Made by a program: the position numbers and the translations under genes. Below are positions 28,802-29,713 of a DNA stretch of 34,462 bases, in pieces (position 1 is the stretch's first letter; the number at the start of each line of letters is the position of its first letter). The notes beneath the pieces were generated by a model. It saw nothing but the letters and a program-made list of their open reading frames with translations, was not told the DNA's origin and ran no database searches. Origin of the DNA: a virus; UHGV virus genome UHGV-1637875. One strand, written 5' to 3'.

Positions 28802-28940
28802 ATAATATGAATTGGGTGTCGGAATAATAAGTTAACCGAACAATTCTATGTGGTAGTCTACAACTGAGAGATCTGTCGAAAGAAGATGAAATTCAGAAGA
28901 ACGTGACTACCGAGTTTTAATCTCTAACGAGAATTTTTAA

Positions 28941-29189
28941 ATGATTAAACAATTACAACACGCTCTTGAACTGCAACGAAACGCATGGAATAATGGTCAC
29001 GAAAACTATGGCGCATCTATTGATGTTGAAGCCGAAGCTCTTGAAATCCTGCGTTATTTCAAACATCTGAATCCTGCTCAAACTGCATTAGCTGCTGAGC
29101 TTCAGGAAAAAGATGAACTTAAGTATGCTAAGCCTCTGGCTTCTGCTGCACGAAAAGCAGTTCGTCACTTTGTGGTAACACTGAAGTAA
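28941..29189 (+). CDS. rIII: Lysis-inhibition accessory protein rIII
   Basis: 82 aa, MIKQLQHALELQRNAWNNGHENYGASIDVEAEALEILRYFKHLNPAQTALAAELQEKDELKYAKPLASAARKAVRHFVVTLK; matches T4 rIII in sequence and length. Confidence 0.85.
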   Translation: MIKQLQHALELQRNAWNNGHENYGASIDVEAEALEILRYFKHLNPAQTALAAELQEKDELKYAKPLASAARKAVRHFVVTLK

Positions 29190-29434
29190 TTTATTGGAGA
29201 TTCACTGCCTTAGTGTGAGCTAAAATCGAGGAGCCATCGAACTGTCTGATTAATGATTTGCGAATCATTATAGTTTTAAGACCCCGGCAGTTTTATGGTG
29301 TACCTCTTGAATGTGAATGATGACGGGTTTATGGTTATCCTGGTCGTTAAATATCCAAAAACCTATGTTCCCCTTGAGGGCTTGCGCAGGCAATGCCAAT
29401 AAGTCCTGCATTTTCATTTAAAAGAGAATTTATA

Positions 29435-29611
29435 ATGGCAAAACAAGCTAAAGCAAAGAAAGCAGTTGAAAAGAAAGTTGGTGATTCTAAACGCGCTGGC
29501 TACAAGCGTGGGTCGAACTCTCGTATCAATCAAACTGTTGAGAAGATCATGCGCCGAGCACGTGCGGTTCTTCGAGATGATGCTTCTCGTTTTGGTAAGC
29601 AGAAAGCATAA
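29435..29611 (+). CDS. Small basic hypothetical protein (first of nine ORFs between rIII and gene 30)
   Basis: 58 aa from the ATG at 29435 with AAAGAG upstream; lysine/arginine-rich (MAKQAKAKKAVEKKVGDSKRAGYKRG...); followed by a strong terminator. Confidence 0.55.
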   Translation: MAKQAKAKKAVEKKVGDSKRAGYKRGSNSRINQTVEKIMRRARAVLRDDASRFGKQKA

Positions 29612-29616
29612 GTTGA

Positions 29617-29640
29617 GGACTCCTTCGGGAGTCCTTTTTT
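29617..29640 (+). terminator. Rho-independent terminator (UUCG tetraloop)
   Basis: ggactcc-ttcg-ggagtcc followed by tttttt. Confidence 0.8.
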
Positions 29641-29665
29641 ATTTTCCAAAGATTGCATAAAGTTG

Positions 29666-29713
29666 TTTACAGTATGGTTCCTTTGTGATAGTATTATCTT
29701 ACACAAACAAAGG
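29666..29713 (+). promoter_or_regulatory. Early promoter with -10 box nested in a stem-loop (PeSL-type)
   Basis: gTTTACA (29665-29671), 17-bp spacer, TAGTAT (29689-29694); dyad cctttgt (29680-29686) / acaaagg (29707-29713), the right arm abutting the AGGAG of the next gene. Confidence 0.55.

Follow-up and report, generated by a model that had tools for sequence, protein, structure and literature searches.

The intergenic region between rIII and gene 30.9

Is the stretch between rIII and gene 30.9 of T4-type phages an empty gap, the remnant of a gene, or a functional RNA region? The window analyzed here, a 34,462-nt stretch of the virus genome UHGV-1637875, is a T4-type segment with the genes cd, 31.2, 31.1, 31, rIII, 30.9, and 30.8 on the plus strand. 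In the first-pass annotation, the 245 nt at positions 29190-29434 were described as the longest non-coding stretch of their region, with a perfect 8-bp palindrome, no obvious promoter, and a single 35-codon ORF. The gap is real, since rIII ends at 29189 and the conserved gene 30.9 starts at 29435, and in terms of plus-strand ORF cover it is indeed the longest in the plus-strand-coded part of the window; the second-longest such gap, between gene 31 and rIII, has 147 nt. In the records examined, the interval is either left unannotated or called hypothetical. The features of the locus are:

28941..29189, plus strand: rIII (82 aa), with its stop codon 5 nt 5' of the ToxI-like unit
29190..29434, plus strand: rIII-30.9 intergenic region, 245 nt, in the same orientation as both genes, a mosaic of RNA modules
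29195..29228, plus strand: probable ToxI-family (type III antitoxin) pseudoknot, single unit UGGAGAUUCACUGCCUUAGUGUGAGCUAAAAUCG, identified by covariance model and by identity to plasmid ToxI
29228..29306, plus strand: irregular hairpin of 79 nt with 25 consensus pairs, identified by fold energy and RNAalifold
29295..29402, plus strand: 35-codon ORF, rejected as a gene, spanning two RNA modules
29314..29315, no strand assigned: cassette site, empty in the window, with inserts in close relatives
29315..29372, plus strand: conserved H-type pseudoknot, referred to as module B, identified by covariance model R2, both helices covarying
29370..29434, plus strand: gene 30.9 leader, invariant among T4-type relatives
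29435..29611, plus strand: gene 30.9 (58 aa), with the conserved start MAKQ... and an intrinsic terminator 3' of the gene

The spacer is 98-100% identical in T4 and its close relatives and is matched by 768 phage records, in 646 of which at least 80% of it is covered. Its length varies from 121 to 416 nt among relatives, with rIII and gene 30.9 remaining in place throughout, and in distant T4-like phages it appears as a mosaic of short conserved blocks that vary in order and presence. The comparison with T4 and its relatives, proposed as a check together with the first-pass annotation, revealed both this conservation and the covariation of the RNA modules described below. The fold of the whole spacer is ordinary (z -1.0). 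Rfam scans of the spacer and of its long version from TB004 yielded nothing significant, with no family gathering threshold reached, and a tRNA search of four T4-type relatives, long versions included, found none.

The spacer is a real, conserved, multi-part structured RNA region, and it is best explained as a co-transcribed array of structured RNA modules, not a gap. A structured RNA had been among the options proposed earlier, and it is borne out by three covarying RNA structures and the leader of gene 30.9. That annotation was centered on the 8-bp palindrome and missed the two features that are most informative, the pseudoknots at 29195-29228 (ToxI-like) and 29315-29372 (H-type).

A ToxI-like unit downstream of rIII

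A library of bacterial ToxI was compiled by collecting ToxN homologs and extracting the tandem repeats located upstream, which gave 42 distinct natural ToxI units. The ToxN scan of the genome collection returned mostly distant Firmicutes loci and served as a source of ToxI units, not as a survey of enterobacterial hosts. In the alignment of 31 of the 42 natural units, both pseudoknot stems are 94% paired, and stem 2 covaries (0.34 vs 0.156, 0 of 500 shuffles); natural ToxI arrays comprise at least 1.9 units.

The covariance model R1, which was built from bacterial ToxI only and includes stem 2, matches 29195-29228 over its full length with 23.7 bits and an E-value of about 0.0012, the E-values of this model being rough because its calibration was short. 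On both strands of the 34 kb this plus-strand site is the top match of R1, the second-best reaching 13.9 bits. The best match in the window to an nhmmer sequence profile of the bacterial ToxI units is located at 29196-29225 on the plus strand (E 0.0094, rising to 0.077 once the closest bacterial unit is left out). An earlier profile, derived from non-T4 phage alleles alone, missed the window unit; this miss was overturned by the bacterial ToxI models, but it makes the sequence evidence moderate, not overwhelming.

Both crossing stems that define ToxI are present in the unit: stem 1 (29196-29199 with 29206-29209; G-C, G-C, A.G, G.U) with two G-C pairs, and stem 2 (29202-29205 with 29215-29218; U-A, C-G, A-U, C-G) with four standard pairs. 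The third pair of stem 1 is A.G, and the GGAG...UGCC form of this stem also occurs in natural arrays (L099, L123, L137, and L154). Six of the seven conserved ToxI nucleotides (G5, A6, U12, A20, G21, and U22) are found in the unit, as are the two stem-1 G-C pairs. The remaining one, A19, is missing because the linker, UUA as opposed to UUAA or GUUAA in natural units, is 1-2 nt shorter than in natural E. coli units. At its 3' end the unit has an A-rich tail, AAAAUCG(A)GGAG, similar to a natural junction between units, and an A-run cleavage site is absent on the 5' side.

Each phage locus holds one unit, with only the beginning of a second (AUCGAGGAG) downstream, and thus no tandem array. The window contains no ToxN-like ORF, and the unit is flanked by rIII and gene 30.9. 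In the absence of a toxN neighbor, 29195-29228 is an orphan unit, not a toxIN locus; like a phage pseudo-ToxI, it is a ToxI-like sequence in an intergenic position without toxN. On the basis of sequence and predicted fold, we consider the unit very probably homologous to ToxI.

Searched directly by BLAST, the window spacer had no match in plasmids or E. coli genomes, and the ToxI connection surfaced only via the alleles of relatives and synthetic tandem queries. Rfam 15 fails on genuine ToxI arrays, and the negative result of the Rfam scans therefore says nothing about ToxI. The RegB cleavage motif GGAG occurs twice in this part of the spacer, at 29196-29199, where it makes up the first four stem-1 bases of the ToxI-like unit, and at 29230-29233. 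GGAG is a known target of RegB, and the RIII protein has been reported to inhibit RegB activation (PMC9409239).

Plasmid counterparts and allelic types

In the Klebsiella-type relatives, the block GGTGATTTGCTACCAAAGTGCAGCTAGAAAT is nearly identical to the published 36-nt ToxI repeat AGGTGATTTGCTACCTTTAAGTGCAGCTAGAAATTC (PMC8610362). Small plasmids of E. coli, Salmonella, and Klebsiella hold tandem arrays that match this block; in pNMEC-O75B, a 5.6-copy array is located immediately upstream of the annotated ToxN/AbiQ toxin gene. The Idiomarina ToxI array (L099) and a synthetic tandem of the T4-type unit match arrays of E. coli IncF plasmids, Serratia, Pantoea, Shewanella, and Vibrio, and a tandem copy of the phage unit recovers plasmid ToxI arrays with E-values from 1e-18 to 1e-7. 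On the E. coli IncF plasmids CP057296 and OQ420462, a promoter is followed by 2-2.9 ToxI units, a terminator, and the annotated ToxN/AbiQ toxin gene. The units of the IncF array are AGGTGAGTCACTACCGTTAAGTGTGAAGTTAAAAAATC and GGAGAGTCGCTACCGTTAAGTGCGAAGTTAAAACAATC, and the identity to IncF ToxI unit 1 amounts to 28/33 for the window, 30/33 for PM105, and 32/32 for L079. By sequence identity, the window unit is closest to the ToxI type found upstream of toxN on E. coli IncF plasmids.

The bacterial ToxI model matched 18 of 44 T4-like loci with scores of 16-36 bits, always on the plus strand and inside the rIII-30.9 spacer, and none of these 18 loci shows unit expansion. In other T4-like phages this site is occupied by ToxI units of different types that reach higher scores, and canonical and T4-type units are swapped between otherwise matching loci (L045 and the window; L065 and L079). 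The type AUACGC...GCGAACUUGAAAAA is found only in Enterobacter phages (13 records) and matches ToxI on conjugative plasmids of Enterobacter and Citrobacter. The type UUUGC...GCAGCUAGAAAU, present in 168 phages of Klebsiella and Raoultella, matches ToxI of small plasmids from Klebsiella, E. coli, and Salmonella, and the T4 type of Escherichia, Shigella, and Yersinia phages matches the E. coli IncF arrays. Stems 1 and 2 of the phage units are maintained by compensatory changes, with at least four types observed. A ToxI-like unit is retained in most of the 768 related records; that of L011 is degraded (13 bits, stem 1 broken). The allelic, host-matched series together with the compensatory changes speaks for a working RNA under selection and against a scar.

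The central hairpin and module B

The palindrome that had attracted attention to the spacer, taatgatt-tgcg-aatcatta, is located exactly as reported, at 29251-29270. Taken alone it is unremarkable, as perfect 8-bp hairpins are not rare in themselves (17 matches in the window, about 11 of them distinct, vs 6.4 +/- 3.2 in shuffles). It is a real structure because it forms the A+T-rich tip of a larger hairpin that covaries in relatives. This irregular 79-nt hairpin (29228-29306), with the GGAG of 29230-29233 at its base, has a minimum free energy of -23.1 kcal/mol (z -3.28, 0 of 200 shuffles). RNAalifold detected compensatory changes in 5 of its 25 pairs, including two in the 8-bp tip (L049), and position 29236/29296 is occupied by G-C, G-U, or A-U among near-identical phages. 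A search of plasmids and E. coli genomes found no natural counterpart of the hairpin.

Module B (29315-29372) consists of helix P1, formed by 29322-29327 with 29339-29345, helix P2, in which the loop GGUU (29333-29336) pairs with AACC (29360-29363), and a conserved A-rich connecting loop GUUAAAUAUCCAAA (29346-29359). The covariance model R2 detects one copy per locus, that of the window with 57.3 bits. P1 is 87.5% paired, with compensatory changes in three pairs and a covariation of 0.424 vs 0.164 (0 of 500). For P2, cognate loop-tail pairing exceeds non-cognate pairing (permutation p < 1e-4), and about eight different helix sequences occur in register; in T4 this helix comprises just GGUU/AACC.

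[quoted passage not shown] In contrast to them, neither tandem repeats nor a natural array adjoining a toxin gene were found, and module B lacks sequence similarity to CptI of E. rectale. Searches of plasmids and E. coli genomes yielded no natural array or counterpart of module B, and its synthetic tandem matched plasmids only at chance level. Since no matching natural array was found, the likeness to CptI and TenpI, compared by description, is an architectural analogy only. On plasmid NZ_CP056218, cited for TenpN in PMC12283969, no recognizable toxin was found. Both module B and the 79-nt hairpin are conserved structured RNAs, and either of them could be a further decoy or a processing or stability element that separates units.

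The gene 30.9 leader and the downstream terminator

The leader of gene 30.9 (29370-29434) begins with the hairpin CCCC-UUGA-GGG (29370-29380), which is followed by the stem GCAGG/CCUGC (29386-29390 with 29405-29409) and by UUUUC (29411-29415), which is able to pair with the Shine-Dalgarno region GAGAA (29424-29428). In L027 and L031 the stem has changed to ACUGG/CCAGU and thus covaries, and in RB32 the leader is retained despite the loss of the 5' half of the spacer. As the fold energy of the leader is ordinary (z +0.44), its structure is weakly supported, and RNAalifold gave no useful consensus for it because the stems differ in length. An upstream in-frame ATG at 29393, the start of the 72-aa gene 30.9 in the records of RB32, ASO78A, and PM105, sits in the leader stem-loop. 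This codon is ACG in L040 and is absent in L027, and since it is not conserved, the 58-aa gene starting at 29435 is the conserved form.

Gene 30.9 is followed at 29615-29636 by a strong intrinsic terminator, GAGGACTCC-TTCG-GGAGTCCTT with a T run, where the transcription unit containing the spacer likely ends. A weak Rfam match to Atu_C8 (31 bits, below threshold) falls on this terminator. An early-type promoter, TTTACA-17-TAGTAT (29666-29694), is located directly after it and ahead of gene 30.8, the two forming a terminator-promoter cassette at 29615-29694.

Possible function of the ToxI-like unit

The reading that we prefer, with a probability of about 55%, is that the spacer is an array of RNA modules whose first unit is an orphan antitoxin mimic like pseudo-ToxI of phage phiTE, an RNA that suppresses ToxN (Blower et al. 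2012, PMC3475682). In a toxIN-carrying cell, the short-lived ToxI, the RNA antitoxin of the type III toxIN abortive infection system, would hold ToxN inactive. As T4 shuts off host transcription, ToxI would decay, its half-life being 3-4 min (PMC5772629), and the freed ToxN would cut phage mRNA. The ToxI-like unit provided by the phage rIII-30.9 transcript may then replenish the antitoxin, so that cognate ToxN would stay inactive. The unit is co-oriented with rIII and gene 30.9, and there is no internal terminator. The analysis shows the homology to ToxI, the RNA structures, and the allelic, host-matched distribution; expression of the unit as a stable RNA, ToxN binding, and protection are inferred.

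A decoy function of 29195-29228, considered by itself, is a tentative assignment that falls slightly short of an even chance. A single CptI repeat is fully antitoxic if over-expressed (PMC4627078), Pectobacterium ToxI needed 2.5 repeats (PMC5086642), and wild-type phiTE with 1.5 repeats was still aborted (PMC3475682). The presence of one copy, the altered linker, the lack of a 5' cleavage site, and the dispensability of the unit in RB32 count against the decoy reading. The E. coli ToxIN of the work by Guegler and Laub reportedly restricts wild-type T4, whose escape is said to need amplification of TifA. The ToxI of that system reportedly belongs to a type other than that of the T4 unit, so that this sensitivity neither supports nor excludes activity of the T4 unit. 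The literature on T4 transcripts and searches with literal sequence strings provided no expression or processing data for the interval, and no ToxI-like sequence in T4 or in the spacer was described in the incompletely covered literature on toxIN and phage escape, TifA, and tenpIN.

Like pseudo-ToxI of phiTE, which acts by RNA mimicry of a type III antitoxin, the T4 unit is phage-encoded, intergenic, and devoid of toxN. Escape of phiTE requires that its 1.5 repeats expand to 4.5-5.5 or give way to real ToxI, whereas the T4 locus has one unit. The T4 unit further differs from that of phiTE in its location, 5 nt past the rIII stop codon within a multi-module RNA array, and in forming part of an allelic series of at least four ToxI types across T4-like genera. 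For E. coli, five clusters of toxIN loci have been described and the conserved ToxI nucleotides listed (Manikandan et al. 2022, PMC8860590). With the E. coli ToxI arrays the T4 unit shares the pseudoknot core, the conserved nucleotides (bar A19), and a natural-looking 3' junction; it differs in its shorter linker and replaced A19, and it is solitary, whereas the E. coli toxIN loci have 2-5.6 tandem units with their own promoter, terminator, and toxN. Protein factors directed against toxin-antitoxin systems are also known in T4-like phages, namely Dmd, TifA, and an orphan DarG-like antitoxin (PMC10853763, PMC11825919). They represent the same strategy, a phage-supplied substitute inhibitor acting against a host toxin-antitoxin defense, but they are proteins, whereas the T4 unit would be an RNA. 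The first module of the spacer is best read as a putative new addition, carried by T4, to the antitoxin-mimic RNAs of phages, a class already known.

Another explanation, which we consider unlikely, is that the spacer is a purely cis-acting leader or processing region, whose structures set stability, processing by RegB or RNases, and translation, the resemblance to ToxI having no functional consequence. The invariance of the 3' half, kept even in RB32, the ability of the Shine-Dalgarno region to pair with the upstream UUUUC, the GGAG targets of RegB (PMC9409239) at 29196 and 29230, and the position of the modules on the mRNA strand between two genes are all consistent with such a role. However, the leader fold is unexceptional (z +0.44), the shuffling of modules between phages while rIII and gene 30.9 stay constant is hard to fit to one integrated leader, and the host-matched ToxI types are left unexplained. 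The latter imply repeated acquisition or selection and thus also speak against a recombination relic, an explanation slightly less likely still, in which the unit would be a non-functional scar of exchange with a toxIN plasmid (compare the hijack in phiTE-F) that drifts in a hyper-plastic region. The single copy, the shortened linker of the T4 type, the degraded unit of L011, and the existence of deletion variants point in the direction of a relic; the unit is nevertheless kept in most of the 768 related records, and both stems are maintained through compensatory changes across at least four types.

That the spacer is a cassette with a promoter or terminator, like the promoter-stem-loop cassettes elsewhere in T4-like genomes, is very improbable. 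Such a cassette exists just downstream of gene 30.9, but neither a sigma-70-like promoter, in agreement with the first-pass annotation, nor an intrinsic terminator was found within 29190-29434, and the 8-bp palindrome is rich in A+T and forms part of a larger hairpin. The least probable explanation, to which we give hardly any credence, is a small protein gene (the 35- or a 34-codon ORF) or the remnant of a lost gene. ORFs of 34-49 codons are present on both strands of the spacer, and hypothetical proteins are annotated in some database records. The 35-codon ORF itself exists, at 29295-29402 including the stop codon, one base away from the position first given. Its ATG at 29295 is ACG in T4 strain 147, PM105, and ASO78A, it is split in close relatives by cassettes of 43 or 153 nt, and the 398-nt version of the spacer contains no intact ORF. 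The ACG start, the variation in length, with indels that are not multiples of three or split the ORFs, and the lack of an intact ORF in the longer versions practically rule out a gene or gene remnant, and the covariation is of the RNA type. Hence the initial interpretation stands with respect to a structured RNA and falls with respect to a decayed gene.

The antitoxin-mimic reading concerns T4, the reference lytic phage. If the unit works, T4-like phages carry an RNA counter-defense against type III toxin-antitoxin abortive infection, and the type of the unit would help to predict which toxIN cluster is tolerated, a matter relevant to host range and to selecting phages for therapy. The natural allelic swaps at a single site and the matching toxIN plasmids in E. 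coli, Klebsiella, and Enterobacter offer a ready experimental system, and at least three further conserved structured RNAs without a known family are flagged by this analysis.

Cassette variability around rIII

Close relatives differ from the window at the site 29314/29315, where TB004 and PM105 have a 153-nt insert (module A) and ASO78A has a 43-nt insert, UGCGUCAGCAAAAGGUUAGCUGUCUAAGAC, that is also found in L015 and L029. RB32 keeps just the 3' 121 nt of the spacer, and VIPECOOM03 is without the tip of the central hairpin; as these phages lack all or part of the 5' half, this half is dispensable.

The structured RNA called module A, about 145 nt long (L002:1325-1478 in TB004), has the invariant core GCTAACGGTGTGCAACAGAT and is also present in L013, L016, L020-L023, L026, L030, L032, and L067. 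A single copy per genome is present in 405 records of phages of Klebsiella, Escherichia, Enterobacter, Yersinia, and others, with 91-95% identity across genera; RNAalifold predicts 45 pairs, with compensatory changes in 23 of them. For module A, a candidate for a new non-coding RNA of phages, no match was found in Rfam and no counterpart in E. coli or on plasmids.

The gene 31-rIII spacer contains a hairpin (28846-28922) with the conserved core CUACAAC.GA.AGA.CUGUCGAAAGAAG.UGAA..UC.GAAGAACGUG. The same core is found inside the gene 30.9 leader stem of L016, L021, L030, and L054, with compensatory changes in the inner stems, and the shared core indicates that the spacer upstream of rIII draws on the same pool of RNA cassettes. 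A more speculative possibility, doubtful on present evidence, is that the regions flanking rIII in T4-like phages form a hyper-variable "RNA anti-defense island". Its interchangeable RNA cassettes might each be a decoy or inhibitor of another host system that depends on an RNA partner, and might include the ToxI units of several specificities, 29315-29372, the 79-nt hairpin, module A, and 28846-28922. If such an island exists, the ToxI unit would be the sole cassette with a target that can be named today.

Two loci, L080 and L081, depart from the usual arrangement. From position 1323, a truncated rIII is followed by TTTATTGGAGATT, the first bases of the ToxI-like unit, and then by an apparent run of tRNA genes (recognized by eye); in L080, module B (L080:1117-1174) precedes the truncated rIII. 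The order suggests a rearrangement whose junction lies inside the ToxI-like unit.

Smaller elements were also observed in relatives. One covarying cassette has the order outer stem, GCCCAC, inner stem, loop UGUACG, inner stem, GGUAAC, and outer stem, and is found in L016 and L025 (1137-1170), L024, L023, and L067. Small hairpins of the forms UUGCC-GNAA-GGCAA and UGAGAGGU-NNNN-ACCUCUCA are present as well.
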